63,435 nt of DNA, filler included, from Reclinomonas americana ATCC 50394 (GCA_048213135.1; 13 parts of 13 records of this genome joined end to end with filler, not necessarily neighbours in it), one strand, 5' to 3'. Numbered from the whole stretch's first letter, positions 1 to 63,200 are shown. Numbers and translations: made by a program. The notes: generated by a model from the sequence alone, not told the origin.

Positions 1-3000
1 GCGGCGTTGCTGCAGTATGTCGAGCAGGTGCTGCCGTAGAAGTCGGCCTTGCACTGTGCGCAGAACTGGCCAGTGTAGTTGCCGGTGCACACGCACACTC
101 CGTTCGTGCACGTTCCTGCATGTGGAGGAGAACGTGTGAGCAGCGAGAAAGCAAGCGTGCAGAAACAGTGCGTGCGCGCACACAAACCGTGTCCATTGCA
201 GTTGACATTGGCACACGAGGTGTCGGCACCGGTGGCCAGCGAGGTGCCACTGAGCACCAGAGAAAAGTCCTGAGCCGACACAAGCTGGAAGGCCGTCACC
301 ACGATGGTGTACGTGCCCGGTGCCAGCGAGTCAAAGAGGACACGCTCGGCGTTGTGCCTGCACACCACGGTGTGGAGTGAGCACCAAATGTATAATCATG
401 GGAGGGGGAAAGGTGGTAGGTAACATGGACGCAACAGACGATCGGGGATCTTGGCGGTGACGCGCTCGTTGCCGCGCTGCAGCAGGGTGCTGCCCTGGTA
501 GACGGCCAGATCGAGATCGTTGACCAGAGCGTGCGAGGCACCGGCGGCGGGTGTGGCTGGAGCGGGATCCGTCCAGGCCAGTGTGATGGCCACACGACCA
601 GTGGAAGCCGTCACCGTGAAGGTGGTGCTCCACGAGGCGCCAGTCGAGGCCAGCGGATTGCTCTCGTGCGACAAGACAAAGGTGCTGTGCCAAACACACA
701 CAAGTGGTGAGCACCAGCGCTCAAGCATCATCAGCAACTCCTGCGGCACACTCGCACTCACCGCATGCCCGTGCTGGAGCTGGCAAACAGATTCGTGTAG
801 AGGATGCGACCGAAACCGTACTTGTTGGCCGAGCCCGCCAGATCGCTGGCGTTGTACTCGCCCGACAGCGGCACGGCGCTGTTGAACAGAGCAGCGCGGA
901 GGAGAGAGGCGCGAGGCGACGGGATGCCGGTGCCGGGGGTGCCGGGCGGGTTGGGGTAGTACTTGCGGAAGTACTCGCGCAGCGTGGCGGAGATGCCGGC
1001 GGTGGCCGGGGTGGCCATGCTGGTGCCCGAGTAGCCGATGGTCATGGCGACAATGTCGTTGAAGTTGGCACGTGCACCGGTGCCGCACACGTCGCCAGTG
1101 GCCAGTGAGAGGGCCGACGTACTGCGTGGAGGAGGAGGAGAGGAGTAAGCGAGTGATGGGTGAAAGTGGGCGTGCAAGTGCAGAGTGGACGCAACAGTGG
1201 GTTGCCGGGAGTGACCAGATCGATACCCATGCGGCCGTCGCTGGCAGGTCCACGAGCACTGAAGCTGGCGAGATTGGTGGCCACGCCCGAGTCGAGAGTG
1301 ATGGACGCACCGATGGTCAGCGAGTTCTTGCTGTGCGCTTGCGGACTGCAATGGTCGTGCTTTCAGAAACCCAGAACAAAGAAGGGTTCGAACATTGAAG
1401 AGCAGCGCACCTGATCGTGCTGGCACTTGGACCGGCATTGGAGGCGGCGTACAGAATGTGCATGTCGCGGTTGCTGTTGGCGAAGCGATCAGTGGCCAGC
1501 GCCCAGGTGTCGTAGCCGCCCGGCGCGCTGCCCCACGAGTTGGTGTTGATGCGAGCGCCGGCAGCATAGACCGTCGCATAGTACTGCATTTGGAAAGTGA
1601 GAACACACATTTGGAAGCGAGAGTGCAGACAAGACAGGGCAAACCTGGTCGGCTCCGGGAATGTTCAGGTAGTTGGTGGGCGGCACACCAAAGTCGGCCA
1701 TAAACCTGCATGCAACAATATAAACATGAGTGAGAAGCCACCTTCTTCTTCTCTCTCCGCCAAGGGTGTGCACGCAACAGCTTGGCGTTCTTGGCCATGC
1801 CATTGTACTGCGTCTGGGAGCCACCGTAGGGGTCGGCGTTGCCGGCCACCGTGCCACACACGTGCGTGCCGTGACCGTGTGCCACGTTCTCGCCAGGGCT
1901 GGCGTAGCTCCAGTAGCCGACAATCTTGCGGTGCGCCACCTTGCCTGTTGGCGGTGTCGTCCAGTCGGTGGTGGCCGCCGAGTCGAGCTTGAAACCGGCG
2001 TTGGGGTTGGAGTCGTAGAAGAAGCAGTGGTTGTACTGTGCGTCGTTGTGAGAAACAAACAATGAGGAGAGCCACACGACGGCGCACACGACTCACATCG
2101 AGACCCGTGTCGCCGACTGCCACCACCTCTCCGTCGCCAGTGAGGACATTGGTCCACGGCTCGGAGGCGGGCACGCCAGTCTGGAAGTTGAAGCGGGCGC
2201 GCGAGTTTTGCGTGCGAGGCTACAAGGAAGAGAGTGAGAACGACAGAAAAAACGCAAAGAACAAGAGACGACCAAAGCCTCCGGCAGTACCTTGATGTAG
2301 ACCTCGACCCACACCACACGCGGAATGGAGAGCAGCAGATCGGCGGCACCGAGCAGGCTCTCGTGCGACGAAAAGGTGATGCTGAAGATGTCGTGCGACA
2401 TGGCCGACACCTGCGCCACGTGGAAGCCCTGGCTGTTGAGCAGCTTGGTGAGGTCGTCGGCGAACTCGAGCACCACGTGCTCCGTCGGCGACATCATGAC
2501 TTGCACGATGAGACGGTCGCTCGGAGGCTCCTGCACAATGTTGCCGTCCTCGTCGACCTCGAACGACTGCACCGCCGCAGAGTCGTCGACAAGGCGGTCG
2601 AGCGACGCCGAGGCCTTGAACTCTTGGCGGAAGGGCAGCACCGACACCAGGTGCGAGCCGAGCTCGTGGACCACGTGGGTGATGGCTTCGGCAGTGGCAA
2701 AGACCAGGAAGCTGCGGTGCGGCACGTAGCGCACGTCGACGGCGGCTACCGTTTCAGCGTCGTCAGTCGACAATCCCATGCCCTGTGAAATGTACCGGGC
2801 ACGGTAAATGAGTTGCATTTCAGAATACCAATAATCTCGGACATCGCGCACACACCTCGGCAATCAGCGTCCGCAGGCGATCGGCAGACTCGGGCGACAC
2901 GTCGTCCATGGCGATGATAAAGGGGTGGCTGTACTCAACAAGGCCACTGGAGTTGGGCTGCGGTGCTTGCACGGCCGCGGCGTGGTCACTAAAGGGAGCG

Positions 3001-8916: not shown

Positions 8917-9852
8917 CGCATGCTAACTTGCGTGGTGTGCAGCTGCACCGAGTTTGGCTACTTCCAGACCGCCCCGCAGCCCCCGAACAAGCCACTGCGC
9001 TCGACTCGGCTGACACTCAAGTACTTTTACGACGTGTGCCAGTACCTGTACGACCTGCCGCTCATTCCCAACACGGCGTTCACAAATGCCTACTACGGAG
9101 TTGCGCTCGCTCGCCTAGCACGATTCAGCTGCGACACCTGACATGCTTTGGCGTGCACACAGAGCCAATCCATGCAAGCCAGCCGTGTGGTGGCCACTAG
9201 CGGCTCGGTGGATCCGTGGACCCGCCTGTGCTTCACATCGTCCATGGAGTGCTGCCCGACCGAAGTTACATACTGCGTGGGCGACTCTGCACGACGATAG
9301 TGTCTCATTCCCGGCACGCAGGTCCCGATTGTGATTGACGGCACCTCGCATTGCGCCGATTTGGCCGACCCTAGTCCCGACGACCCCAAGTCGCTCACCG
9401 ATGCACGCTCGCGAACCCAGTCGCTGCTGTCGACGTGGATGGACAATGAGTGCCTCGATGTGTGCCGCCCGATTCGTGAGTTGGTCAACGGTTAAGGGGG
9501 GAGCCATTGCTGTTGCTCGCAACTGACTTGCCTCTCATTGCAGCTCCCGCTTGCAACTCGGTTGCGTCGCAGCACGCACATACGTACCTTGTGACTTCTC
9601 GTCTTCTAACCCACGATGGATTAATTGCAGGTGCTGAATAACGCCGGTGTGGCTGTCGGTATTGGATTTGCCGTGTTGGCTGTCGGTGGCGTCATTGGCG
9701 TTTTCTTGGGCATTTGGATTGCCGGGCGGTGTCGCCGTTGCGTGAGAGTGGAAGTGGGGTTGAAATGTGACGAGGATGTTGACGACTGTGTGTTGTTTGC
9801 AGGGAAGCGCGAGGGCGACTTTGCGCCACTCAACTCGGATCGGAGGATTTAG
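6746..9852 (+). CDS. Peptidase S28 (PRSS16/Pro-X carboxypeptidase family) with C-terminal TM helix
   Basis: Signal peptide; [47 protein letters not shown] nucleophile, [22 protein letters not shown] and [10 protein letters not shown] segment [27 protein letters not shown]; last exon 9803-9852. Confidence 0.93.
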
Positions 9853-10549: not shown

Positions 10550-13500
10550 ATGGCGAGCGCAGGTCAGCTCTACTCCGTCACCCTGACTTTAACACACAAT
10601 GCTTACAATCTCGCGTACAGGCGGCGACAGGATCGCGGCGTTGCTTGCTGCTGTGAAACGTCTCCAGCAACGAGAGGTTATTCCGCGTGCTGCGTGTGAC
10701 GGTCACTTGCTCTCTCACACACACTCATGTGTGCTTCCTCTCCACAGGAACTTGCGACACTCGATGCCATACGGAGAGAGCTGGGTGCCGATTGTTGCGT
10801 GCGCGTGTGTTGCGGAGAGATGATTGATTCTCGTGCATCACTTTCATCTTCCACACGACGCAGATGCGAGCGTCGACCTGGATGATCTGGTGAGCGAGGC
10901 TTGTGATCGCGGAATCGTGGGGTGGAGTACAGTGGAGGATACTCGAGTACTGCAGGTCTTCGGAGGCGGAGGTGAGGATGCGATTTTATTGTGCACACGA
11001 TGCTTGGTATTCTAATCGCACCCGACAGGCGCTGGTGGACGTGGGTGGGGAGCGTCGGCGAGCGCACCTGCTTCGACAACTCGCCAGTCTTCCGCGGCCG
11101 CGGCGTTGCCAGCACGCATGATTCCATTGTCCGCACGTCCTCCCGCTCCGCCGTCGGCGAGACCATCACCAGGTTACTCTATGTCGTCCAGTCTGTTTTT
11201 GAATCAGCTGCCTTTGCTCATCACCTTCCTGTTTACACAGCCGTGCTCAGTCATGATGAGAAAGCTGCTCGTCTCGCAAAGCTTGTGCGCCAGCACTGCG
11301 ACGACACAGGGGTGCGTTGTTGTGTGTGTTGCACGCAATGGCCTGATGGTGTCCACTCAACGCATATGTGGGCGTTGCAGTGTGTCATGAGCGTGAGGCT
11401 AGGCGATTTGGTGAAGCTGCAGTCGGAGGTGTTCTACACTGGGGGTTCGTTTCTCTCTCGCCTGATGAGTTCACCGCCGTGCTCCGTTGTCATTATGTGC
11501 TGTCGCTTCAGACACGGGAAAGTTTGCGGCACTCTTGCAATGTGCTGTGCAGCGGAATCTGTTGCGAATATGTGGCGAGAACAAGTCGGTGGTGCAACTC
11601 GTGGACTTTGTCTCGGAAACACGGTCTCCGTCGCCATCGTCGCCGCCGAAGGCACTCACTGCCGCTGCTCCCACAGCCGAAAAGAAGAGTTGCGTGGATG
11701 TGATTGTGCTGCGTGATGGTCGGTAATCTCACAATGTGCCTCTCATATGTCGCCGATGTAGAGTCTCGTAGTCGCGAAGAGAAGGCAGAGCGACTTGCCG
11801 CTCTTGTGTGGGAACACGGAACTGATGGGGTATGATCCCTGGTGTCTGTGGTCACGTCATCTCAGGCTCACTCTACATACGCCATACCTGTTTCAGCGTA
11901 TCCGCGTAGCACTTCTCAAGTCACTCGTGGAGAAGGAAGACCAATTCCTGTTGTCGAACGGTGCGTGCCTTCTGGACTTTATTGTGGCGCGCATTGTGGA
12001 ATCACCGTTTGCTTTTATGCTCAGGGAAAAAGAAGAAAAAGGCTAAGTCTTTGGATCCAGTTATCCAGTCTGCCGTTAGCCGCCGCATACTCAACTTCGT
12101 TGACGGCCAGAAGACAGTGGTGCAAGTTGTACAACGGCCGAATCCGGCAACTCCACTGTCCATTGCAGCCACACAGTCTTCACCCGTCGCAGACGCTGCT
12201 GCTTCATTGTCGAAGCCGCTGTTCACCGCCGCTGCGCCTGCTGCGCAGCAGAAAAGTTGCGTATTCGTCTGTGTGCCAGCATGCTAGTCCCCGTCACTGG
12301 ACGACGCTGTAGTAACATTGTGTATGCAAATGCATCTTACGGTGCGTTAGAAATCTCACTTGCTGCAAAGAGAGCAGCTGGACTAGCTGCTCTGGTGCGC
12401 GAATATGGAACTGAAGGGGTCTGCTACGCCTATCGTTGTCGTGCTTCATGAAAGTGCTCATACTCACTCAAAATATGGATGCGTGCGTGCTTCAGCGAAT
12501 CGACGTCGAACAGCTTAAGGCACTTGCAGAGGCTGACGGGCAGTTGTTGCTGTCGAAGAGTTGCGTGTCTCCACGTGTCTGTGTATGGATTCCCTGTTGT
12601 GCGCATCATGGTATCACAGTTCTATACAATACTCAGGCAAAAAGACGATCAAGCCGTTTGCGCGGGTTCTCGCATCTGCCATTGACCGTCGTGTGCTGAT
12701 GTACATTGATTGCAAGACCGCGGTGCAAGTTGTACGGCCGCCGAATTCGGCAACTCCACTCTCCACTGCTGCCGCGCCGGCGTCGTCCGTCGCAGCCACC
12801 GCCGTTACGTTGTCGAAGCCGCTGATCACTGCCGCTGCGCCCGCTGCACAGAAGCAGAGTTGCGCGTTTTTCTGCACGTGCGTATGTCTCTCGCAAAACG
12901 GCACGTCGCATTAACATTTTGTGGCGAATTCAATAGTACTCGATCCCATTCAAAGAGCTGAAAGGCTTGCCGCCCTGGTACGCGAACATGGAACTGAAGG
13001 GGTCTGCGTCGCCAATCAAAGTCGTCATGCGCATGAATGGATAATGCTCACTCAAGTGTGCATGTGCTAACTTTTCTTAGCGGATCGATGTCAGTACACT
13101 CGAATCACTTGTGGAGATGGACAGATATATGTTGCTGTCAAATGGTGCGTGACATCTCTCGACATTATCGTTGTGCGCATCATGTGTTCACCGTTTCTTT
13201 CGCATCCAATGCCCAGGGAATAAGAGTAAGCCTAAGCCGAAGCCATTTGATCACGTTGTCGCAGCTGCGGTTGCCCGTCGCGTGCTCGAATACGTTGATG
13301 GCAAGGCCGCTGTGCAAGTTGTCAGATCGTTCGATTCGGCAACGCCCTCGCTGCGGTCCCCGAAGCCTCTTTCCGCCGCAGCCTCCACAATGTTGTCTGC
13401 CAAGACTCTCGTCGCTGCCGCGGTGCCCGCTGCTGCGAAACTCAGTTGCATACACACCGCTGTCTGTTTGTGGCTGGTTGTACTTTGATTTCACGATTCA

Positions 13501-16500
13501 TCGTCACAGCGAGACCAGGGGTGCTCACTCTCGAAGAGAAAATAGTCTTGCTTGTCAATCTTTTGCGCAATCATGGAAAGCATGAGGTCTGGCACGCTGA
13601 TCGTGCTTTGTTTCCTCGCGTTCGTTTGCCGTGCTCATTCCGATGATATTCACATCTCAGGGAATCGATGTCGAATCACTCTGGGGACTCGTGGACAAGA
13701 AGCGGTTTATATTTCGAATTGGTATGTGCATTTTCGTTGCGAACAACAATTGCACATCACGCACATGTCCATCTGCATCACTACTGTTTAAACCAACAGG
13801 ACGAAAGGGATTCAATGACGTTCTGGCAGCTGCCATTAAGTGCCACTTGCTTGAATACATTGACGACGGCAACACCACGGTGCGACTTGGACAATCAATG
13901 AGTCCAGCAGCGTCGCTCGACCATACTTTGACAGTGGAGGAGCTTTCATCCGCAGCCGCCACCGTCGAAGCGTTGTCGACGCCGCTGACTGCTGCTGCTC
14001 CGGAAACTGAGGCAGTCAGTTGCGTGTTCATCTGCGTGTCTTCTACGCATTGCCATCGCCAATATGTTCATCTTCATCGTGCGGCACGTGCAGAAATCCT
14101 CAGTGACGAGGAGAAAGCAACAAGACTCGCTGCTCTGGTGCGCAAACGTGGAAATAACGGGGTCTGCAACTTGCCTTCCATGCGCTAATGTGCGTCTCAA
14201 TCGTCTGGCTCACTCTCCGCTTCGGACGTGTCTTCGTCATTCAGAGAATCGATCTTGGATTTCTCGGCGCACTTGTGATGCTGCAGCCGGCTGTCTTCAA
14301 GACTGGTAGTGAGTACTTTGTTGCGCGCGCGGTACTTGTGATCACGGTCATCAACTGGTACTATCACAGAGACAAGGACTCTGTCGCAAATGCTTAGGTG
14401 TGCACTGGATCTCGGCCTGCTCGAGTACTGTGCGGACCGCAGCAATTGGGTGCAAGTAGCTAGTGCTGCGCAGTCAGATCTAGAATTCTCGGCCGCTGCG
14501 TCAACTGAAACCGCCGCCCTCACACTGCCGGATGCGGAATCGATACCCACTGCATCACCTCCGCCACTGACTGCCGCTGCGCCCACTGCACAGAAGAAAA
14601 GTTGCGTATTCGTCTGTGTGCTAGTCTCCGACGCCGTATTAACTTCGTGTATTACCGTGCGTTAGAAATCACACGTGCTGCCAAGAGAACAACGAGACTC
14701 GTTGATCTGGTGCTTGAACGTGGAACTGAAGGGGTCTGCTACGCCAATCGTCGTCGTGCTGCATGTGAGTGCTCATACTCACTAAGAATATGGATGCGTG
14801 CCCCAGCGAATCGACGTCGAACAGCTCAAGGCACTTGCAGAGGAGGACAGGCATTTGTTGCTGTTGAAAGGTGCGTGAATCTCGACACTGTGGTGTGTAA
14901 CATCGATTCACCGTATCTACAATGCTCAGGGAAGAAGATGAAGTCCAAGTATTTTGAGCAAGTTCTCGCATCTGCCATTGGCCGTCACGTTCTCGAATAC
15001 ATTGATGATAGCAAGTCCGCGGTGCAAGTTGTCAGATCGTTGGATTCGGCAACGCCCTCGCAGCGCTCCCCTAAGCTTTTTTCCAGCACAGTCGCCATGC
15101 AATTGTCTTCGAAGGCTCTCGTCGCTGCCGCGGTGCCCGCTGCTGCGAAACTCAGTTGCATACACACCGCTGTCTGTTTGTGGCTAGTTGTACTTTGATT
15201 TCACGATTCATCGTCACAGCGAGACCTGGGGTGCTCACCCTCGAAGAGAAAATAGTCTTGCTTGTCAATCTTTTGCGCAGTCATGGAAAGCATGAGGTCT
15301 GGCACGCTGATCGTGCTTTGTTTCCTCGCGTTCGTTTGCCGTGCTCATTCCGATATTCGCAACATCCAGGGAATCGATGTGGAATCGCTCTGGGGACTCG
15401 TGGACAAGAAGCGGTTTGTATTTCGACTTGGTATGTGCATTTTCTTTGTGAACGACAATTGCACATCGCACATATCCATCACCACTTTTTACACCAACAG
15501 CAAGAAAAGGATTTAATGGCGTTCTGGCAGCTGCCATTGAGTGCCACGTGCTTGAATACATGGACGACGGCAACACCACGGTGCGACTTGGACAATCAAT
15601 GAGTCCAGCAGCGTCGCCCGACCATACTTTGACAGTGGAGGAGCCTTCATCCGCAGCCGCCACCGTCGAAGCGTTGTCGACGCCGCTGACTGCTGCTGCT
15701 CCGCAAACTGAGGAACTCGGTTGCGTGTACATCTGCGTGTCTTCTACGCATCGCTATCGCCAATATGTTCATCTTCATCGTGCGGCACGTGCAGAAATCC
15801 TCAGCGACGAGGAGAAAGCAACAAGACTCGCTGCTCTGGTGCGCGAACGTGGAAATAACGGGGTCTGCAACTTGCCTTCCAAGTGCTTATGCGCACCTCA
15901 ATCGTCTGGCTCACTCTCCGCTTCGGACGTGTCTTCGTCATTCAGAGAATCGATCTTGGATTTCTCGGCGTACTTGTGAGCTTGCAGCCGGATATCTTCA
16001 AGACTGGCAGTGAGTACTTTGTTGCGCGCGCGGTACACAAGTATGGTCGTCAACTGGCGCCATCACAGAGACAAGGAAGCTTTCGCAGGTACTGCAATGT
16101 GCACTGGATCTAGGCCTGCTCGAGTACTTTGGCGACAGCAGCAATTGGGTGCGATTGGCGAGCATCTCTAACACTGTGTCGCAATCAACCACTTTCGCTG
16201 TGTCATCTCCGCCTCCGACTGCTGCTGCTGCTGCATCGGCATCTGAAGACCTGAGTTGCGTACTTGCCGTCACTGTGTGTGATGTGCATTGCTGACATTT
16301 CATGATTCGTGTAGTCCAATCAGTGCTTTCTTTGGCGAATTCAAGCCCCCCGACTCTCTCGAGTAACCCCCCGACTGCAATCCCAGTGTACGCTTCCACC
16401 GACTCGAGCACGGACTCAAATGCAGTCTCCACGCCAGCCACCGAATCTTCGACCCGCTCGTCGACTCTGGTGAAGAGCGCAGCAGTCCTGATCACCGCCA

Positions 16501-16541
16501 TCTATTTTTTTACCAAATACTTTCGGCGCAGAAAATCATAA
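10550..16541 (+). CDS. About 33-exon protein with 9 (plus 1 divergent) tandem LOTUS/OST-HTH-like winged-helix repeats, Ala/Ser/Pro/Thr linkers and a C-terminal tail anchor
   Basis: Each repeat is three exons with intron phases 1/0/1, e.g. SREEKAERLAALVWEHGTDG | RIRVALLKSLVEKEDQFLLSN | GKKKKKAKSLDPVIQSAVSRRILNFVDGQKTVVQVV. Last exon 16315-16541 ends LVKSAAVLITAIYFFTKYFRRRKS*. An in-frame upstream ATG lies at 10511. The gene model is well supported; the domain identity is inferred. Confidence 0.75.
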
Positions 16542-16598: not shown

Positions 16599-19500
16599 TC
16601 AATCCACACACGTGACGGCCGCTGCCTCCGCTTCACGCATGCAGTCCTCCATCAGCGCCACAACACCGCTATTGCCACAGTGCGTCACCTTCTCCAGCAG
16701 ACCACGCACGGCGCCCACAGCCTCCTGTCTTGTCATCTTCTCCAAATCCATCTCGCAGAACTCGCACAGAGCGTCATTGACTACTCGTTCGCCCTGCATC
16801 CCGAAACCATCAGCAGCGCGATCATAGCACACACCGCCGACCATCACACACACTCACCTGCGGGTCCAGTTTGCGTCGCTTCCGCTGTGGCTCTCCAGTG
16901 TCTTCGTCGTCGTCGCCACCGCCGGCCATTACCACATCTGCCAGGGAGCATTTTTGAGAAACAAGACTGAACAGGAGAGTGCATGGTCTCTTTTGGCTCC
17001 AGCATGCAGTGCATGGAGAGATGACAAGGGGCGTGGGAGAGAGTGCATCAAAAGCAGCCAAACGCAAGAATAAACAAGGTGGAGTGGTGACATGGGGTAT
17101 GACAGAGAGCGCATGCTCTGATTGCCAATGTGGTAAGGATGAGGGCAGCGAAGGGAGCAATACAAATGTACGGGATGTGCATCCCGAGCGCAAAAATGAA
17201 AGTGGAGTGATGACAAGGGGCAAGGCGAAAACATGGTGTGCAAGAAGAGGAGGAGAGCACAACAGGATGGAAGAGCACGTACGATATGAAGTCACCGTAA
17301 GCTGTCACATGAAATGGAAGAAAGGAGTGTTGAACAACGCGCTAAGTTACCCACATGGTATTCTCTCTATCTATCAATCTATCAATCTGTCTCCATCTAT
17401 CCACATGCTTGACTGCCTGTGCGCCTGTCTGTCTTTGTCCTCACTCCACCCAGCGCTTTCTGCATCTGCCGTGCTTTTCTCACTTCCTCTCCTCTCTGTC
17501 CATCAGTGAAAGAAGTAAAACAGGATGTAAGCTGTGAAGTGACTGCCAACACAGCCACATGCAAGGAAAGAGAAGGCGCACTGAATGAGAGAGTGCGTCT
17601 TTCGTAATCATAGTGTAGACAACAAAGGCGGAGCGCAAGAAGAATGAGGAGGGAAGGAGGAAAAGGTTGCGTACTCTAAAGTGACTGCCAATACAGTCAC
17701 ATGCAGTGCTAGAGAACGAATATTGAATGAGAGAAAGTGCATCGCCCCAAAGTGACCACCACGCAGCCACCTGCGCGTCATCCACACTCACCACCACTGC
17801 TACCCGACGCCGACGCGGACGCGCCGTCGTCGCCCCCAGCACTCTTGTCAAAGTCCTCCAATTCTGAAGCCTTGCGGCGAGCCATCTGTGCAGCACAACG
17901 CCCCATTTCATCAGTCAACCCCCCGAGCAATTGCCTTCGAGACACATCGCACCTTGATCACACTGGGTGGGAATCCCGCCAGCTCCGCCACATGGATGCC
18001 GAAGCTCTGATCGCATGCACCGTCTTGCACCCTGTAGGACCGTGAGAATCAGCACCGCGCCAGCCCTCATTATCAGTGAAACAATGTCCGCAACTTGTAC
18101 AACATGGTCAACGTGTTACCACGAGTGTGCGCGGTCACGTGCTTGTTCTTGATGCCCGGCGCGTTGCCTTCCAGTGCCGTGAGCTCGTGGAAGTGCGTCG
18201 CAAAGAGGCAGAAGCACCCAATGTCACGGGCAATGTGCTCCGAAATGGCGTACGCCAATCCGTAGCCATCGTAGGTGCTCGTGCCGCGGCCGAGTTCATC
18301 AATCACCACCAGCGAGTTGGCCGTTGCCGACTGCAGAATCGACGACGTCTCCAACATCTCCGACATGAAGGTGGAGATGCCGCGCAGCTGTGAATCCGAT
18401 GCGCCAACACGCGCCGAGATGCAGTCGACGGCCGAGATCACCGCCGACTCGCACGGCACAAAGCAGCCGATTTGCGCCATGAGCGTCACCACACCGATCT
18501 GAGAGACAACTATTGTGTGAGTGTCTCTCACTCACGCGTACAAGGAAAGGGAGGGTCACGCACACACACACTCTCTCTCTCACATACATACACACTCCCT
18601 CACACACGCACATACATACATACATACATACATACATACATACATACATACATACATACACACATATACACATATACACATATATACACAGACATACATA
18701 CGTACAAACACTCTTTTTCTCTCTCTCACAAACACATACATACATACATACACACACATATATTTCACACATACATACACACGAATAAATACACACTCTC
18801 TCTCTCACACACACATATATATACACAGACATACATACATACAAACACTCTTTCTCTCTCTTACACACACATACATACATACACACACACACACTCTCTC
18901 TCTCTCTTTCTCTCTCACACACACCGAGCGAATGTACGTCGACTTGCCGCCCATATTCGGACCCGACACAATCACAAAGTTGCTGTCGCCCTTGACCATG
19001 GACACACTGTTGGCGATGAACGCCACCCCGTCCTGCACCTCGAGACATGGGTGGCGCGCCTGTGCAATTCACATGAGCTCACAGACGGCGAAAAAAAAGG
19101 TACAAGCACGTGCGCCGTACCTCGGTGAGCACCAGCTGGCGCGAACCAATGGCATGCACCTCCGGACGAACGTACGGGATCGGTGCCTGCACTGAGCTCT
19201 CCGCCAGCGCCAACAGCACATCGAGTTCACTCAGCACATCTGCCACATCCTCCACCACCGGCATGTACGTGGCCACAATGGCCATGGCCTGCGTTCCATG
19301 CAAGAGTGGTGAGGTGACACGCACGTTCGAGACAATAGCGTGGAAAGCAAAATCCACGCAACCTTGTCAACCAGTTCGGTCTGCTTGACGTCGTACTGCT
19401 CGCGGAGATCGCTGTATTGCGAGTTGAGGGTGCGCAGCTTCGGGTTGGTGAAACGCACTTGGCCCTGCGTCACTTCGCTCTGCAGTTCTGGCCGCGCGCG

Positions 19501-20236
19501 AATCGCTTTTTCATGCTGCGCACACACACACATTCACACACACAAACAAACGGATTCCACATTAGACCAGGTGCGTTGGTGGGCCACAGAGAGTCGAAAA
19601 GAGTGTTGGCGAACCTTCTTGGGGACCTTGAAGTGGTATCCGAGCTTGATGTTTTGCTCGAGCTTCACCACCTTGTCGGCCTCCAGCTGCAGTGAGGAGC
19701 ACATCTCCCGCCACGCACGCTGGATCTGCTGCTCGAGCAACTTGATTTCCGTGCTCAATTCCTGTCGCGCAGGTGAGTACACGGATGCTCCCCCCTTGAG
19801 GAAACGCAATCTCGCACGTACCGCCAGCTGGTCGTCAAAGTCGGCCTTGATGTTGTACTTGTGGTGCTCCACTTGTTCCAGATCCACCACGTTCTCCACG
19901 AGAGCAATCAAGTTGTGCATGTCGTCGGCCGCCTTTTGCAGCGGCTCCACAAAGCGCACACGAACCGCCTGCAACTCGCAGTCGCGGAAGGCGTCGGCCA
20001 GGTTGGGCAGAGCCAACGCCAGCTGATACAGGCGGACGGCATCGTCGAGGCGAGCGCGGCCGCGTTGCAGTTTCTTCACCGTGCGGGGCAAATCCGGAAT
20101 GCGCTTCAAATGCTCATCGCGAAGCGTCTGCCGAAGCACCGTCTCCTGTACGAAGAGCTCCACCAGATCCAAGCGTGCATCTGCTCGTTGAGAGAGAGAG
20201 AGAGAGTAGATGAATAGACGTGCAACACAATACGAC
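16599..20236 (-). CDS. MSH2: DNA mismatch repair protein MSH2, 5' part lost in gap
   Basis: [36 protein letters not shown], Walker [78 protein letters not shown] and MSH2-like C-terminal helices. Confidence 0.97.
18560..18922. repeat. (CATA)n/(CA)n/(CT)n compound microsatellite in an MSH2 intron
   Basis: catacatacata... runs seen directly. Confidence 0.95.
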
Positions 20237-20393
20237 NNNNNNNNNNNNNNNNNNNNNNNNNNNNNNNNNNNNNNNNNNNNTTAATTAATTAANNNNNNNN
20301 NNNNNNNNNNNNNNNNNNNNNNNNNNNNNNNNNNNNGAGGTGCAATAGAAAGAGAGTGGATTGTGCCTGCAGAATGTGTGACCGTCTGCACAG

Positions 20394-21733
20394 GAACATC
20401 GGCACGGGCTACTTTGGTTGCCGCACAAGCGAAGGCCAGTTCGATCCCGACATGTTCACCAAGACCGCCAGCCAGCCGCAAGTCAAGATGATTGAGATCA
20501 AGCTGAGTCAGGGCGCCAAGCCCGGTCACGGTGGCGTGCTGCCCGGCACCAAGGTGACGCCCGAGATTGCCGAGGCCCGTGGCGTCAAGGTCGGCGAGGA
20601 CTGCAACTCGCCACCGCGCCACAGCGCGTTCACGGGACCGCGTGGACTCGTCGAGTTTATCGCCCGTCTGCGCGAGTTGTCCGGCGGCAAACCCATCGGC
20701 TTCAAGCTGTGCCTCGGTCGGCCGGAGGAGTTTACGGCTGTCGTGCACGCCATGTTGGTGAGTGGCCGGTGGGAAATAGAGTGTGTGGTGGTGGTCGGCA
20801 TGATACTCACACGGGAGCAGGAACTCAACACGTACCCCGACTTTATCACCGTCGACGGTGGTGAGGGTGGCACGGGCGCTGCGCCGCCCGAGTTCAGCAA
20901 CCACGTGGGCACGCCACTCGTGGAGGCTCTGTCGTTTGTCGACAATGTGTTGGAGGGTGCCGGTGTGCGTGGCCAGGTGAGCATGTGATGATGATGAGAG
21001 CGGTGATGGCCCCTCGCTTCCGCTGACGATCGTGCGCAGGTCAAGCTGATTGCCTCTGGAAAAATCCTCTCCGGCTTCTCCGTCGTGCGCACGCTGGCGC
21101 TGGGTGCCGACGTGTGCAACTCGGCTCGCGCCATGATGTTCGCGCTCGGATGCATCCAGGCTCTCAAGTGCAACACCAATCGTTGGTGAGTTTCAGCACA
21201 GCACTGTCGAGATGTTATTGTCATTCACGTGCACGCGTCTCAGCCCGACTGGCATCGCCACACAAGACCCCGAGCTGATGAAGGGTCTCGTGCCCGGCGA
21301 CAAGGCCGAGCGTGTGGAGCGCTACCACAAGAAGACCATCAAGTCTGCGATTGAGCTGATCGGTTCGTCGCATGCAGTCTCCTAACGCAGATCCACCCTC
21401 CGCGCTCATTCCTCTCTGACAGGAGCCATTGGACTCAACTCCCCCGAGCTACTGCGCCCGGAGCATGTGATGCGCCGAGTCAGCTCCACCCGCGTGGCGT
21501 CGTACGCCGAGCAGTACCCGCGTGTGGCCACCGGCTGCTTGCGGACGGGCCAGGGACCGACGGCACTGCAGTCGGCGTGGGAAGCCGGCTACAAGCTGCT
21601 GCACCCGCCACCGTGCATGAACGCCCCGCACATGCTCGAGTCATCCACCAGTGCGTTGACGCACACGCCTCCCTTGTTCCTCCTGTTCCGCACGACTCAC
21701 TTCGTTACCACAGCTCGCATCATTGCCGCCTGA
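20394..21733 (+). CDS. FMN-binding glutamate synthase family protein (single-domain, YerD/GlxD-like), 5' part lost in gap
   Basis: NIGTGYFGCR, EIKLSQGAKPGHGGVLPG, GKPIGFK, DFITVDGGEGGTGAAP, ASGK, LALGAD and the 3Fe-4S motif CIQALKCNTNRCPTGIATQ. Stop codon follows soon after the FMN domain. Confidence 0.93.
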
Positions 21734-24632: not shown

Positions 24633-26676
24633 CTACGGTCTCTCCACCGTCACGCGCAGACCACTGGCTTGCCCGACGTACGTTGCTGCAGGTGAATGAG
24701 GCGGGGGGTGTGGCGACTGCGCACCGCCCGGTAATGATGGCGGTGCGAGCAGAGGCTGCGGCGCTGCGCCCGTAACCACTGTGTTCTCCTCGGCAGCTTC
24801 GGCGCCCGCCGGCCACACACTGCTCGTGTAGGCCACGATTTCCGCACGGCACACTGGGCACTTGTCCACGTGCTGGAAGCACTCGTGGCACACACAGTGA
24901 TGTCTGCACGGCAGCAGAGTGATGCGCGGTGGATCCGTGAGACAAATGGTGCACACGTGGTCCTCTTGCCCTGGATCCTTCTCGAAGCCATACACATCCT
25001 GCGTACCGGGTGTGAGAAGGAAGAACACGCACTGGAGGAGGAAGATTTTCGGTCGACGCAACGTGCACTTCGTAGGCACCGAATGGCACACAAACAACAT
25101 GCTTCACCTCGGCCACACGCAACGGAGCGGTGGCGGTGCCTCCGTCGAACCACACAAAGTAGAGCACGCATTCGACATCAGCGCAAATCTCCCGCAAGTC
25201 GTCGGCCACGCCGGACAAGCGCGCCGACGGAGCCGGAGTGTACATGGCGGGCTGTTGTGGTGCTGGTCGGTGTCGTGCACTGCTGGCCGACACCTCAGCA
25301 GGCGGCGGTGCATCTTTTCTGAGGAGAATCACCAGCGGAACAGCCACATTCAAATCGAGGCTCGCCAGTGCATCCACACGCGGTCGTTCGTGTTGCGGCA
25401 GCACGAATCGGTGTCGGCCATGCGAGAAGCTACAGATGACGGGGAAATCAGAAGACATGAACCACACACACGCCTCCCGCCACTCTCGCCACTCAACTAT
25501 CTCCGATCGCCGGCGGCGCGGAACTCTTGCGGCAAGAAGAACGGATAGCCCGAGTGCACCACAGCCTCGTCCACCGACGGTCCATCGGAAAACACACTCA
25601 TCTCCACGTCCGTCTTGGGTGCCGGAGCGCCACCCTTCTTGTGACCGCTGCCGCCGCTGCTGCGCGAGCCGTGACTATGTCGACCATCACCACCTCCGCC
25701 AACACCCGCACCACTGCTGCTGCTGCTTCCGCCCTTGTCTTTGCCTGCGGGCGAGGCAGCCTGCTGCGCCTCCAAGTACTCAGTCAACCGACGCTGTCCC
25801 TCGCGCGACAGCTGATGCCGATGTCGTTCGACAGCCGCCAGTGTCACTCCCCAAAACACCTCCAGCACCACCGGCACGTCACACAAGAACTCGAACGACA
25901 AGTCCACGGCGCCTGCAATGCGCGTTCGTGAATACAACAAGGAACCACGTCTCCAAAAGAAGAAAACACGGCATCACGAACCCTCACTCGGCGACATTCC
26001 CGCACTCAGCGACGACTTGCGCAGTCTCGCAAAGCTAAACAAGCGCAGCATCTCCGACGGTGGAATGCGTGCACGGTGGTTGCGCACGACCTGCATCACC
26101 TGCGATCGAACATTGCCGACCGCCGGTCCACCGGCCACGTTTGAGGCCACGCCAAGAGGCACAATCTGAGGGTGGATGGGAGGGGTGAGGGCGCAGAGAG
26201 GGAGAGAGAGAGAATGAGAGGCAAAGAGCCTGCTGGAGTGGGGTGAAAGAGGAGAAGAACGGAATGAGAGGCAGCCAAGCCAGTCTGTCTTTCTCTCTCT
26301 GGAGAGGAATGAAGAGAAGAAGGACGGCAACAGAGGCAGCTATTCTCTCTCCCTCTCTCTCTCCTGCTTACCTGATTGCTCCGCAAGGCACTCCTCAGCT
26401 CCATGAGAGCGCACGTCTGCCGCGCCAGTCGAAACAACCAAAACACCAGCAGACTTGCAATCACCAGCACGAAAAAGTTCTGGATCTCCGGCTGCACCGG
26501 CACAAAGTTCTCCTGCACACACAAGCGACAGAGAGACAGAGTGAGTGAGTGAGAGAGAGAGAGCGATGACCATGTCCGCTCTCTTCCTTCTCTCTTGTCT
26601 CACTGTGTGAGTGGAAGTGCGTGTATGTGTGTGTATCGCCTCTCCAACGCACTAGTGCTGCAGCAGTGCCCGCCAT
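24633..26676 (-). CDS. N-terminal TM, C-terminal C3HC4-type RING E3 ligase (CGRRF1/MGRN1-like)
   Basis: TM segment FFVLVIASLLVFWLF; RING region QDVYG...CTICLTDPPRITLLPCRHHCVCHECFQHVDKCPVCR. The start exon MAGTAAAL is inferred. Confidence 0.85.
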
Positions 26677-59877: not shown

Positions 59878-60225
59878 AATCAAACAGAGTGGACCGCAAT
59901 TGCTGTCATTCTTGCTTCCTCTCTTCCAGTTCCTCCACGAAGTCTCGACCTCTTGATATCCTGTCTCTTTCTCTCTCGTTCCATCCCTCTCTCACGCTGA
60001 TTTCATCCCTTCCTTGTCGTCTTTCTTTCGTCCTCTCACTCTCTTTTTGCCCGTGTCACACAGAGTGTGTCTCCTTTTCCATTTCACTCCCTCTCCTCTC
60101 TCTCTCCCCTTTCCTCTCTCTCTCCNNNNNNNNNNNNNNNNNNNNNNNNNNNNNNNNNNNNNNNNNNNNTTAATTAATTAANNNNNNNNNNNNNNNNNNN
60201 NNNNNNNNNNNNNNNNNNNNNNNNN

Positions 60226-63200
60226 TTTCTCGGTCTTGTCCGCGACGGCTGTTACTCCTATCAGCTACAACTACGCCGCGGCGACAACATTGACTGTAGA
60301 TGGCGCAGGCTTGTCAACCCGAGATCTGTATTTTGCCGTGTCGAGTTCCAGTCTATGCAGTGCTGTTCCACTTGCTCAGGTCGCCGTCGATCAAGTGACC
60401 CAAGTGCAATTCAATCAGCAATTCACAGTTCGCGTCACCATCAGTGATGGCAACGGATGGCTCTTCCGTCTCTGTGTGCAACCAGGTGGTGAGCCCAGCG
60501 CTGCGTTCGCGCTGTCTGTGGCCTCCCAGCAAATTGTGTCAGCGGTGAAGTCGAGTGGATTCACGCCCCCGGCGATCCCTGTTGGATACAGTGTGACAAT
60601 GACGGTGAACGGCAGTGGCTTCCGCCCCGGAAGCGACACTGCGGCGGTGCTTGTGCAGGCTGCCGCTTCGTGCTCGTCTGGCGCCGGATCGCTTCTCAGT
60701 GTGTCGAACGTAACAGCGCCTAACGGTAACACGTTACAGTTCACTGTCAACACTGCTGCAACAGTGGCGTCCACTGCATATACTGTTTGTGTGGCTGCGT
60801 CGCCGACGAGTCCGGTGTTTGTCAATGTCGGAACGCTCTCTGGTTTGGTGCTTGTGGATGGGCAGAGCATTGTGCCACTAGGCAGTGTCGTCCCTGTGAT
60901 CGCCAACACGCGGTTCACGATTTCGGGAGTGGCACTGAGCAGTCTCGACGTGGTGCAGTTTGTGGCCAGCGACGCTGCTGGCCAAGTGACGTGCAGTTCG
61001 CCAATGGCGGCTGCCACTGTGAGCACTCGCAACCCTGCGGTTGTCAGCAACCAGCTGGTGGTGGACTTGTCGAGTGCCATTGTCAGCGGATCGCGCTTCC
61101 TGGTGTGCATCCAGTTCCAAGGTGTAGGCCTCTCGTACCCTCTCAGCAACTCTGCGGCAGCATTCTTCTCGGCTGTATCAGTGCCCACCGCAACGCCAGT
61201 GACGTACACTCTGGACACCAACGCGCGTATCATGCAAGTGACCGGCACTGGCCTCAGCGCAGCCGACACCTATTTCGTGGTTGCCGCAGACAGTGCGTGC
61301 ACTGCTGGTCCACTGGCCTCCACGGCGGTTGCAGCGCCCGCAGTGACCACATTCAACACGCTCGTATCCATTACTGTAACCATGAGTGACTCCACTGGCC
61401 GTTTGTTCCGATTGTGCGTACGACCTGGCAACAATCCGAGCCTGCCGGCCGCCATTGCGGTCGGCAGTGGACAAGTTTTCGCTGCGGTCACCGTCACGTC
61501 CTTGACACCTGTGGCTGTGCCTCGAGTGGCAAGCGTGTCGCTGACCATTACCGGTCGTGGTTTCCCACCAGCCGGCACCCTGCTCGTGAAGGTATGTCAT
61601 TGTTGTTATATGTATGTATGCTTGCTTGTCGTTTGTATGCCTCGGACGCCTAACTTTGTTCCCACCACTGCAGATGGTCGATTCAGCGTGCACGGCATCC
61701 GTATCGCCGCTGCCTGTGACTTCGGTGACAGTGACGTCTGATACGCAGGCGGTGGTGGTAGTCAACACATCCTCTGCGGCGGCTGGCTCGACTCGCCAGG
61801 TTTGCGTTGCAACAAGTGTGTCGGATGTGTACTTGCCAGTCGGTGCGCCTGTGCTGCTTGTGGATGCGCAGTCGGTGTCGCCTGTTGGGCTGCCGGCGCC
61901 AGTGACAACGGGTCGTCGCCTGTCGGTTACTGGTGTTGGTCTCGACGTAACTGATGTGTTGCAACTGGTGGCCACCAATGTCGATAGCTCGGCCACTTGC
62001 AGTGATCCGCGAGGAGGCACTGTACTTGCTCTTGTCAACAACATTCTGAGTGGTGGTCCGCTTGTGGCCGAGATTCCTTCGAACGTTGTCGCTGGCCAGC
62101 AATTCCTCGTGTGCATTCAGTATCGACGCCAGGGTGTGTTTTACCCGTTGAGTACGGCTGGTTCATCTCGCTTCTCGGTGGTGGCGGTGACGAACGTGCA
62201 GCCGGTGCTGTTCAATTTTGTGTCTCCGGCTCTGCTGACGCTCTCCGGAAGCGGCCTGTCGTCGGACGATCGTTTGTTTGCAGTGGCTCCCGGCGACACG
62301 TGCACATCGGCAACGCCGCTGGTGCCAGTGCGCTTCAGTACTCCCACCGTGACTTCGTTCAATCAGCAGGTGACGCTCACCATCAACTTTGATGACGGCC
62401 TCGGCAACGCCTTCTTGGTGTGTCTGCGACCGAATGGAAGCGTAGTGCTGGGTGATGCGCTGCTACTGAATGGCGGTCAAGTGGTCAACGCGGTGCAAAC
62501 TGCGTCGGTGACCCCAGTTAATGTTCCAGCTCTGTCGTCGGTGGCGCTGACAGTGTCGGGTGCTGGATTCCCGCTTGGCGCCAATCGCGTGGTCGTGAAG
62601 GTGTGTGTGTGAGAGAGAGAGAGAGAGAGAAAGAAAGATTGTTGTCGTGGTTTATGGTTATTTGTCTTCTCATGCCCATGTGTGTGTTTGTATTTGATAG
62701 ATTGTCGAAGATGCTACGTGCCTGGGAACTACGAATCCAGTGCCGATTCTAGGCGTCTCGTCGACAACAACGGCGGCGCTGGTTGTGACTGTGAACACCT
62801 CGGCGGTGCCAATCTTGTCGCAGCGCACGGTGTGCGTTGCTGCGACAATGTCGTCGCCTTTTATCATGGTTACTGGCAGTCCATACGCTCTCCAATTTGT
62901 GAGAGCGTCGGCGGTGTCGCCCAAGGGCCTGTTCACGCCAGTTCCCATTCACACGCAACTCACAATTTCCGGCGCTGGTCTCACGAACACGGACGTGGTG
63001 ACGCTGATTCCGCGCAATGCACTCGGCACTGCCTCCTGCGATGACTCTGGCGGACTGTCGACTGACAGCACTACCGTGGTGGCTGCTGGCATTCAAGTGC
63101 AGCTGACCGCTGCCATCGCCGCTGGCCAGACCTACCTTGTGTGCATTCAGTTCCGTGCTCAAGGCCGCTTCTACCAGCTTGGCGACCCCACTGCGAATGT

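Follow-up and report, generated by a model that had tools for sequence, protein, structure and literature searches.

The LOTUS (OST-HTH) domain is a module of ~80 amino acids, in which three helices and two strands take a winged helix-turn-helix arrangement (PMC7498356). Tandem arrays of it are described in MARF1, with eight copies of the minimal form (mLOTUS) in the mammalian protein (PMC7498356) and six LOTUS copies in the Drosophila protein (PMC6168497), whereas eLOTUS proteins carry a C-terminal helix extension through which they bind and stimulate Vasa (PMC5458760). Among tail-anchored proteins of mammals and yeast, a moderately hydrophobic segment with a highly charged tail directs the protein to peroxisomes, lowering the tail charge from +4.9 to +2.9 redirects it to mitochondria, and targeting to the ER requires high hydrophobicity and low charge (PMC5450235). 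The terms "LOTUS domain" and "tail-anchored" occur together in no paper of the literature searched. The gene described here lies in a 63-kb window (the whole stretch of DNA analysed, 63,435 nucleotides with filler) and encodes nine tandem modules followed by a C-terminal hydrophobic segment. We put forward, as a proposition about evenly balanced between right and wrong, that its product is a tail-anchored protein restricted to its lineage, whose basic, winged-helix-like modules form an array on the cytosolic side and work as a multivalent tether.

A spliced gene with nine tandem repeats

The initial annotation placed at this locus a spliced gene absent from the ORF track, and this intron-rich gene is real. 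In the predicted model, assembled from coordinates, 33 joined exons give a coding sequence of 3732 nt that runs from ATG 10550 to the stop codon at 16539–16541 without an in-frame stop, as one unbroken frame of 1243 amino acids (Table 1). The introns are each 57–95 nt long, and retention of 28 of the 32 would bring in a stop or a frameshift. There is no long ORF, the longest stop-to-stop frame on the plus strand of the region being 246 amino acids. Pooled over paralogous exons, pN/pS is 0.52.

The nine repeats of ~75 amino acids that had been proposed are all present, and their first exons start no more than 1 nt from the nine positions given earlier. Every repeat consists of three exons (A, 65–77 nt; B, 61–64 nt; C, 177–231 nt) with intron phases identical across repeats. 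An HMM built from the nine units finds nine domains in the spliced model (96–108 bits each), and in the six-frame translation it recovers all 27 repeat exons, exclusively on the plus strand and from 10976 to 16292; the remaining eight pieces listed for the 63-kb window all have E values of at least 0.9. The nine-unit alignment displays the consensus reported before, EEKAxRLAALVREHG-xG-RIDVxxLxxL...G(K/R)KxFxxVLxxAxxxxLLEYxDxxxxVQV, as well as the Ala/Ser/Pro/Thr linkers, which are ~30–45 amino acids long and each carry a conserved terminal motif, "...TAAAP.A.K". It contains no conserved cysteines, and between the predicted helices 2 and 3 of the repeat lies a basic loop, variable and up to ~8 residues long. 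Net charge is positive in all nine modules (+1 to +7; pI 8.1–10.2). Pairwise identity among the units ranges from 22 to 89%: repeat 8 is 89% identical to repeat 5, repeat 9 is 82% identical to repeat 6, and repeat 7 is a mosaic that looks like repeat 3 in exons A and B and like repeat 4 in exon C and the following intron. These recent internal duplications and the mosaic repeat indicate an array in flux.

Table 1. Features of the gene, by position in the window.
Feature	Position	Strand	Exons	Evidence or property
Whole gene model, 33 exons, 1243 codons and stop	10550..16541	+		32/32 introns GT..AG
N-terminal region, ~122 aa, five exons, start uncertain	10550..11172	+	10550-10562, 10621-10676, 10748-10793, 10864-10971, 11029-11172	phase-consistent junctions
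Repeat 1 and linker	11241..11688	+	11241-11311, 11381-11444, 11512-11688	HMM domain 1, 99.4 bits
Repeat 2	11762..12255	+	11762-11829, 11897-11960, 12025-12255	HMM domain 2, 101.3 bits
Repeat 3	12351..12858	+	12351-12418, 12496-12559, 12637-12858	HMM domain 3, 96.1 bits
Repeat 4	12937..13444	+	12937-13001, 13081-13144, 13217-13444	HMM domain 4, 100.1 bits
Repeat 5	13510..14018	+	13510-13586, 13661-13721, 13800-14018	HMM domain 5, 103.4 bits
Repeat 6	14094..14600	+	14094-14161, 14245-14308, 14370-14600	HMM domain 6, 107.7 bits
Repeat 7 (mosaic)	14666..15154	+	14666-14733, 14807-14870, 14930-15154	HMM domain 7, 102.7 bits
Repeat 8	15220..15719	+	15220-15296, 15370-15430, 15501-15719	HMM domain 8, 101.2 bits
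Repeat 9	15795..16254	+	15795-15862, 15946-16009, 16069-16254	HMM domain 9, 107.5 bits
Last exon: Ser/Thr/Pro-rich stalk, hydrophobic segment, basic tail, stop	16315..16541	+		S+T fraction 0.36
Predicted membrane segment, residues 1223-1235, 13 uncharged residues	16476..16514	+		Kyte-Doolittle mean 1.88
C-terminal tail, 8 residues, net charge +5 (5 Lys/Arg, no Asp/Glu)	16515..16538	+		sequence, hand count

The N-terminal region has a helical-looking start followed by a Gly/Ala/Ser/Pro-rich linker. Confidence in the model is lowest for its first two exons and the start codon, for which ATG 10599 offers an alternative in the same frame. A divergent N-terminal copy had been counted as a tenth repeat; the sequence exists, in exon 10864–10971, but its score against the repeat HMM is only −0.6 bits, which leaves nine supported copies and not ten. 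No signal peptide is seen at either candidate N-terminus of the predicted 5′ end, both being amphipathic and charged rather than hydrophobic, as judged from hydropathy and sequence. An upstream S28 peptidase gene, with a membrane exon of its own and then a tandemly repeated last exon, reaches 10494; since only ~55 nt of unoccupied DNA are left before the ATG, there is no room for a signal-peptide exon.

A neighbouring MSH2-like ORF is closest, among the matches listed, to MSH2 of the jakobid Seculamonas ecuadoriensis (46% identity, E 2e-33); the other listed matches are ten plant sequences at 33–36% identity and one further sequence at 35%. By this neighbour, the gene belongs to a jakobid-like (Discoba) protist.

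Relation of the repeats to winged-helix families

A profile of a partial repeat recovered no relative and no LOTUS protein from 1.84 billion representative proteins, and searches of Pfam, PDB sequences and two metagenome scans likewise gave no relative of the repeats. When 15 contiguous exon or ORF pieces were compared with Pfam, OST-HTH (PF12872, family cut-off 23.8 bits) had no match at E up to 10, and neither DeoR HTH nor NYN nuclease nor RRM was found. The 1243-residue product is best read as a protein without detectable sequence relatives, built from what is probably a lineage-restricted orphan domain.

The repeats had been described as LOTUS/OST-HTH-like, a reading that is weakly supported. 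In hhalign comparisons, a profile of the nine repeats matched 32 actinobacterial OST-HTH sequences end to end over 66–74 columns with a score of 24.1 (P 1.4e-4 to 2.4e-4; probability 26–44%), the top end-to-end match among 11 families, with helices aligned in register, although at low probability. None of 100 column shuffles (local maximum 19.7) and none of 100 block shuffles (local maximum 18.8) reached this score, and the reversed repeat profile gave 8.4. However, when the LOTUS alignment was widened to 71 sequences from three phyla (all LOTUS sequences compared were bacterial), the score was 20.3 locally (probability 16%) and 17.9 globally (6%), and an HMM of the 32 actinobacterial domains gave the full spliced protein 0.8 bits. 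The bacterial LOTUS alignments show a conserved signature in the loop and helix 3, F-D-x-R-x-Y/F-G-F/Y-x-K-L; its F-D-x-R-x-Y-G part is absent from all nine repeats, where that site, in the hhalign register, is taken up by a variable, Lys-rich loop and by "K-x-F-x-x-V-L". Of the families tested, LOTUS/OST-HTH comes closest, and these scores weakly suggest a faint resemblance; they do not show membership.

The DeoR winged HTH (PF08220), a classical DNA-binding domain, matched the repeat with a local score of 21.6 over 29 columns (P 1e-3) and a global score of 15.0, while the nine other control families stayed at or below 15.2 locally and 8.4 globally. The DeoR and broad-LOTUS scores each exceed all 60 block shuffles. 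Because the local DeoR match is about as strong as the broad LOTUS match, the signal may reflect no more than a general likeness to winged helices. The repeats give no full-length match to the DeoR profile: the alignment takes in helix 1, the short strand and helix 2, which make up the repeat's first half, covers only 29 of ~57 positions, and its global score is below that of LOTUS. The DeoR HTH has a classical tight turn where the repeats have their variable basic loop. A partial AlphaFold2 model of ORF 13661–14161 (mean pLDDT 52) shows a helix in exon A and, in exon C, a helix at 51–60 and strands at 64–66 and 73–76 (pLDDT 72–81), with exon B poorly modelled. Most likely the modules adopt a winged-helix-type fold that would run helix, short strand, helix, variable basic loop, helix and beta hairpin.

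The initial annotation also saw in the protein a scaffold for helicases. Directly after the last strand, all nine repeats have the Pro/Ser/Thr/Ala-rich linker in place of an eLOTUS-type C-terminal helix, and in the one repeat modelled this linker is a low-confidence coil (pLDDT <50). The helicase scaffold is therefore the least supported part of that proposal. Its analogy to nuage and piRNA processing is speculative and rests on no evidence within the 63-kb window, which showed no gene for Vasa, Piwi or a NYN protein.

The C-terminal segment and a possible tether

The C-terminal sequence read earlier recurs unchanged in the spliced model, and the hydrophobic segment and basic tail retain the tail-anchor-like character then ascribed to them, insertion being predicted. 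The segment is short and is the only uncharged stretch of at least 13 residues in the protein with mean hydropathy above 1.2; no other membrane segment accompanies it, and neither a signal peptide nor a signal anchor is present on the predicted N-termini. The charge of the tail becomes +6 if the stretch is extended to the Lys preceding the hydrophobic segment. An alternative acceptor for the last exon, at 16324, leaves the frame unchanged.

The protein would thus be laid out as a short N-terminal region, nine basic modules with linkers, a Ser/Thr-rich stalk, a single predicted membrane segment and the charged tail. As no signal peptide is seen, insertion would take place after translation, in the manner of a tail-anchored protein, and would leave all nine modules on the cytosolic side. 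Given the moderate hydrophobicity of the short segment and the high charge of the tail, its destination would be peroxisomes or the mitochondrial outer membrane rather than the ER, by a rule drawn from mammals and yeast and applied here to a Discoba host. There it probably acts as a multivalent, flexible tether, keeping at the organelle surface either a polyanionic ligand, for which RNA is the most plausible candidate, or a repeated protein partner.

Alternative readings and known systems

The modules could instead be true, highly diverged mLOTUS domains, forming an organelle-tethered RNA-binding array that prefers G-rich or G-quadruplex RNA, which is the reading of the initial annotation minus its helicase part. 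The end-to-end LOTUS rank with helices in register, the basic charge, the agreement of ~75 residues and a predicted helix and hairpin with the LOTUS description (PMC7498356), and the precedent of the MARF1 arrays (PMC7498356; PMC6168497) speak for this, but the hhalign probability of 6–44% with a lower score against the broader alignment, the 0.8-bit HMM score, the 0 of 15 pieces matching OST-HTH, the missing F-D-x-R-x-Y-G and the failure of the partial-repeat profile to find any LOTUS protein among the 1.84 billion representatives make it rather unlikely. Less probable again is that the modules bind protein or are purely structural and have no tie to nucleic acid; the product would then serve on the organelle surface as a long flexible spacer, a contact-site tether or a part of a coat, and would recruit a repeated protein partner. 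Protein binding is common among winged helices, the searches place this orphan in no known family, and the long Ala/Ser/Thr/Pro linkers each close with a short conserved motif that could serve for docking; against this, the positive charge of every module suits a polyanion.

Both remaining readings have little to recommend them. A Ser/Thr/Pro/Ala-rich stalk before a membrane segment and a basic cluster is typical of type I surface proteins, and all these elements, with linkers of like composition, are present here; with the 5′ end the weakest part of the model, a missed signal-peptide exon would turn the product into a secretory or surface glycoprotein with luminal or extracellular repeats, O-glycosylated mucin-like linkers, a stop-transfer anchor and a cytoplasmic basic tail. 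This is very unlikely, as neither candidate N-terminus is hydrophobic, the upstream gene fills the DNA to 10494, the repeats lack conserved cysteines and the hydrophobic segment is short for a plasma-membrane span. Hardly to be expected at all is a decaying or unexpressed array whose open frame is a relic: the lack of relatives among representative proteins and metagenome scans and the flux of the array fit such decay, but the canonical introns with conserved phases, a 3.7-kb frame without stop, the pN/pS value and the same pattern in old repeats at 22–40% identity do not.

The cytosolic, tail-anchored array of basic modules that we prefer shares with the MARF1/Limkain-b1 arrays its many tandem, basic helix/strand modules of ~75–80 amino acids and predicted winged-helix type, and in its lack of a C-terminal helix extension it is mLOTUS-like, not eLOTUS-like. 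Unlike MARF1, it has no NYN or RRM detected by Pfam on the 15 contiguous pieces, ends in a predicted membrane anchor and carries long low-complexity linkers, and its LOTUS similarity, with the conserved loop motif absent, is too weak for membership. With the germ-granule eLOTUS scaffolds Oskar, TDRD5/Tejas and TDRD7/Tapas it would have in common the notion of a LOTUS-bearing scaffold on which RNA-processing factors are concentrated in one defined place, although a Pro/Ser/Thr/Ala-rich linker replaces the Vasa-binding helix and Tudor and OSK domains are lacking. It resembles the tail-anchored proteins found on peroxisomes and the mitochondrial outer membrane: its one moderately hydrophobic segment stops 8 residues short of the C-terminus, the tail is strongly basic and there is no signal peptide. 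It differs from them in that its cytosolic part would be a nine-fold array of an orphan domain.

Predicted gene structure and neighbouring genes

The gene under study escapes an ORF scan, in which the longest stop-to-stop frame on the + strand of the region is 246 aa and no long ORF crosses it. The DNA itself reads as regular short coding blocks separated by gaps of 57-95 nt that start with GT and end with AG, and a predicted model, written from coordinates alone, joins 33 exons into a CDS of 3732 nt for 1243 aa, with zero in-frame stops and with GT..AG at the predicted junctions of all 32 introns. Retention of an intron would break the frame in 28 of the 32 cases, and the pooled pN/pS for the paralogous repeat exons is 0.52. 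Confidence in the model is lowest for its first two exons, and an in-frame ATG offers an alternative start (see table). The gene is a clear example of a many-exon gene overlooked by ORF-based annotation.

Donor sites across its introns are unusual. All nine introns after the third exon (C) of a repeat unit, together with introns 3 and 13, begin with GTTGC, and six of the nine after the first exon (A) begin with GTCTG. After the second exon (B), repeats 6 and 9 use a GTGAGT donor; the GT/GC aligned with the donor of the other repeats lies 3 nt upstream of it.

Upstream lies a gene for an S28 serine carboxypeptidase, with a membrane segment and a short tail encoded by its last exons. The gene appears to finish with a 16-codon terminal mini-exon that ends in a stop; acceptor, mini-exon and 3' flank together occur in about five tandem copies (periods of 129, 154 and 283 nt, 92-95% matches), each encoding a near-identical C-terminal peptide. 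On the other side is an intron-split mismatch-repair gene of MSH2 type (MutS_V, E 1.5e-56; MutS_III, E 5e-11), one ORF of which is closest to MSH2 of the jakobid Seculamonas ecuadoriensis (46% identity, E 2e-33), while its other 11 matches comprise ten named plant proteins at 33-36% and one unnamed protein at 35%; this points to a probable origin of the window in a jakobid-like member of Discoba. Five further fragments in the window carry Pfam domains listed as subtilase (S8), C3HC4 RING finger, GH5 cellulase, PAN and a weak IPT/TIG; for the majority of the long ORFs in the window, Pfam gives no match.

Positions of the predicted repeat gene, its parts and the neighbouring genes
Feature	Position	Strand	Remark
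Repeat gene, predicted model	10550-16541	+	ATG at 10550
Alternative start	10599	+	in-frame ATG
Introns with unusual donors	10563-16314	+	
Exon A, repeat 1	11241	+	start
Exon A, repeat 2	11762	+	start
Exon A, repeat 3	12351	+	start
Exon A, repeat 4	12937	+	start
Exon A, repeat 5	13510	+	start
Exon A, repeat 6	14094	+	start
Exon A, repeat 7	14666	+	start
Exon A, repeat 8	15220	+	start
Exon A, repeat 9	15795	+	start
Hydrophobic segment	16476-16514	+	residues 1223-1235
Stop codon	16539-16541	+	
S28 gene, membrane-segment exon	~9625-9745	+	apparent end of gene
S28 gene, terminal mini-exon	~9803-9852	+	tandem copies up to 10494
MSH2-type gene	18076-21189	-	
MSH2-like ORF	19534-20277	-	
Other Pfam gene fragment	758-2089	-	
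Other Pfam gene fragment	24636-25103	-	
Other Pfam gene fragment	36677-37156	+	
Other Pfam gene fragment	43762-44232	+	
Other Pfam gene fragment	60182-61738	+	

The repeat array and the C-terminal segment

A five-exon N-terminal region is followed by nine units of three exons each: exon A (65-77 nt) ends in phase 0, and exons B (61-64 nt) and C (177-231 nt) both end after one codon base. The nine repeat starts proposed in the initial annotation agree with the exon A starts within 1 nt, and alignment of the nine translated units recovers both its consensus pattern, over about 75 residues, and its Ala/Ser/Thr/Pro-rich linkers after each unit; every linker closes with a conserved '...TAAAP.A.K' motif. 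A hidden Markov model (HMM) built from the nine aligned units recovers nine domains in the spliced model, each scoring 96-108 bits. When the whole window is translated in six frames, the same HMM picks up all 27 repeat exons in their order and on the + strand only, the remaining eight pieces listed having E values of at least 0.9. The divergent N-terminal segment that had been counted as a tenth copy scores -0.6 bits against this HMM and was rejected, which leaves support for nine copies rather than ten. The longest period considered by TRF is 500, and the repeat units of about 580 nt therefore fall outside its detection.

Pairwise identity among the units ranges from 22 to 89%. Repeats 5 and 8 (89% identical) and repeats 6 and 9 (82%) are recent copies, and repeat 7 is a mosaic with exons A and B from repeat 3 and exon C and the next intron from repeat 4, which indicates unequal exchange. 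Net charge is positive in all nine modules, with module pI values of 8.1-10.2 and a pI of 9.46 for the whole protein.

The short hydrophobic segment and basic tail noted previously are also found in the model. Residues 1223-1235, with a mean hydropathy of 1.88, form the only uncharged stretch of the protein of at least 13 residues with a mean hydropathy above 1.2. Between them and the stop lie eight residues with a net charge of +5. Both candidate N-termini are non-hydrophobic, and an unseen signal-peptide exon is unlikely because only about 55 nt lie between the repeats of the upstream gene and the ATG. A basic tail after the hydrophobic segment counts against a GPI anchor, and a GPI anchor was rejected here on that ground. 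Tail-anchored proteins are described as going to peroxisomes when a moderately hydrophobic segment is combined with a highly charged tail, and as being redirected to mitochondria when that charge is lowered from +4.9 to +2.9; ER targeting is described as requiring high hydrophobicity and low charge (PMC5450235). By this rule, derived from mammals and yeast, the protein would belong to peroxisomes or the outer membrane of mitochondria, the repeats facing the cytosol.

Relatives of the repeat and likeness to LOTUS domains

Database queries were unspliced translations, none with more of the repeat than exon C and one copy each of exons A and B, and with these the repeat domain is an orphan by sequence. 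Fifteen contiguous exon or ORF pieces of the gene, searched against Pfam at E up to 10, gave no match to OST-HTH (LOTUS, PF12872) and only three chance-level matches, all with E of at least 0.06. The word-based protein search with the exon C of repeat 3 matched none of 4266 candidates among longer proteins; of the pattern sites matched in two metagenome scans (599 and 156), none was confirmed, and the ESM Atlas returned no usable match. An alignment of 125 profile positions, composed of an ORF with exons B5, C5 and A6, an ORF with C8 and A9 and seven exon C rows, found in the PDB sequence search only a dehydrogenase (E 0.3) aligned on the Ala-rich linker. Against 1.84 billion representative proteins, at E up to 0.001, the same alignment gave a single match (P0013, 363 aa, E 7.3e-4), a Cys-rich protein of six unclassified Cys-containing repeats of about 57 aa; having only an 'I-E-Y-I..D-I-T-V' stretch in common with the query, it was judged spurious and is probably unrelated to the repeat gene.

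Whole repeats were compared by hhalign of the nine-repeat profile, whose Neff is 2.7, with aligned family sets, the LOTUS set being PF12872 matches from bacterial genomes, translated and aligned, so that the comparison concerns bacterial LOTUS alone. Ten controls comprised eight winged or related HTH families, TetR_N and the acyl-carrier PP-binding domain. Against 32 actinobacterial LOTUS sequences the score is 24.1 (P 1.4e-4 to 2.4e-4; probability 44% local, 26% global), over 66-74 columns aligned end to end and in register; this score is reached by 0/100 column and 0/100 block shuffles (local maxima 19.7 and 18.8), and the reversed profile scores 8.4. DeoR, the best control, gives 21.6 in local mode, where the match spans just 29 columns from helix 1 into helix 2, and 15.0 globally, and the other nine controls stay at or below 15.2 and 8.4, respectively; LOTUS itself against the ten other families scores at most 19.0. 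With a broad set of 71 LOTUS sequences from three phyla the values are 20.3 (probability 16%) locally and 17.9 (6%) globally, and the real score lies above 60/60 block shuffles both for this set and for DeoR.

As judged by these profiles, the likeness of the repeats to winged-helix-type domains is real, above shuffles, and LOTUS is the best full-length match among the families tested, but the resemblance falls short of showing membership. Bacterial LOTUS domains carry an F-D-x-R-x-Y-G stretch just ahead of helix 3, which is absent from the repeats in the alignments, and an HMM of the 32 LOTUS sequences gives 0.8 bits on the spliced protein.

Possible function and comparison with known systems

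In the best-supported mechanism, the protein would be anchored in an organelle membrane and act as a flexible, multivalent tether facing the cytosol, and the nine basic modules on long linkers would fit avidity binding to a polyanion such as RNA or to a repeated partner. A bolder reading, which we regard as unlikely, takes the modules as genuine, extremely diverged LOTUS domains, making the protein a nuclease-less, MARF1-like array on a tail anchor and an RNA/RNP platform at the organelle surface. LOTUS domains are described as winged helix-turn-helix folds in which about 80 aa form three helices and two strands, and as binding G-rich and G-quadruplex RNA in organisms ranging from bacteria to animals (PMC7498356). 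On the surface of mitochondria or peroxisomes, a true LOTUS array would hold RNP granules or RNAs that are G-rich or structured. Organelle-tethered LOTUS scaffolds would then be far older than animal germ granules, the host being a deep-branching flagellate of Discoba. No Piwi/Argonaute, DEAD-box, NYN or Tudor gene occurs among the Pfam-scanned ORFs of the 63-kb window, which says little genome-wide. If the repeats instead represent an unrelated orphan fold, the gene would encode a repeat protein specific to its lineage, and its general interest would be modest.

Should fold and topology hold, the tether would present nine winged-helix-type modules on a tail anchor, an architecture without precedent found here, in a poorly sampled lineage that is early-diverging among eukaryotes. 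It would be a tractable candidate for the way protists tether RNA or protein assemblies to organelle surfaces, and would test LOTUS-like modules as membrane-bound scaffolds outside animals. The literature search returned no paper combining 'LOTUS domain' and 'tail-anchored', and within the reach of these searches the architecture is novel. Its general kinds are known ones, namely scaffolds held by a tail anchor and arrays of tandem winged-helix or LOTUS domains, and mammalian MARF1 has eight tandem LOTUS copies (PMC7498356). Vasa binding is described as requiring the C-terminal helix extension of eLOTUS domains, which the minimal LOTUS domains of MARF1 do not have (PMC5458760). The earlier proposal of a helicase scaffold is the weakest part of that annotation because the last strand of the repeat leads directly into the low-complexity linker: whereas eLOTUS carries its helix extension at this place, the repeats here continue as linker, and the modules, if LOTUS at all, are of the minimal type.
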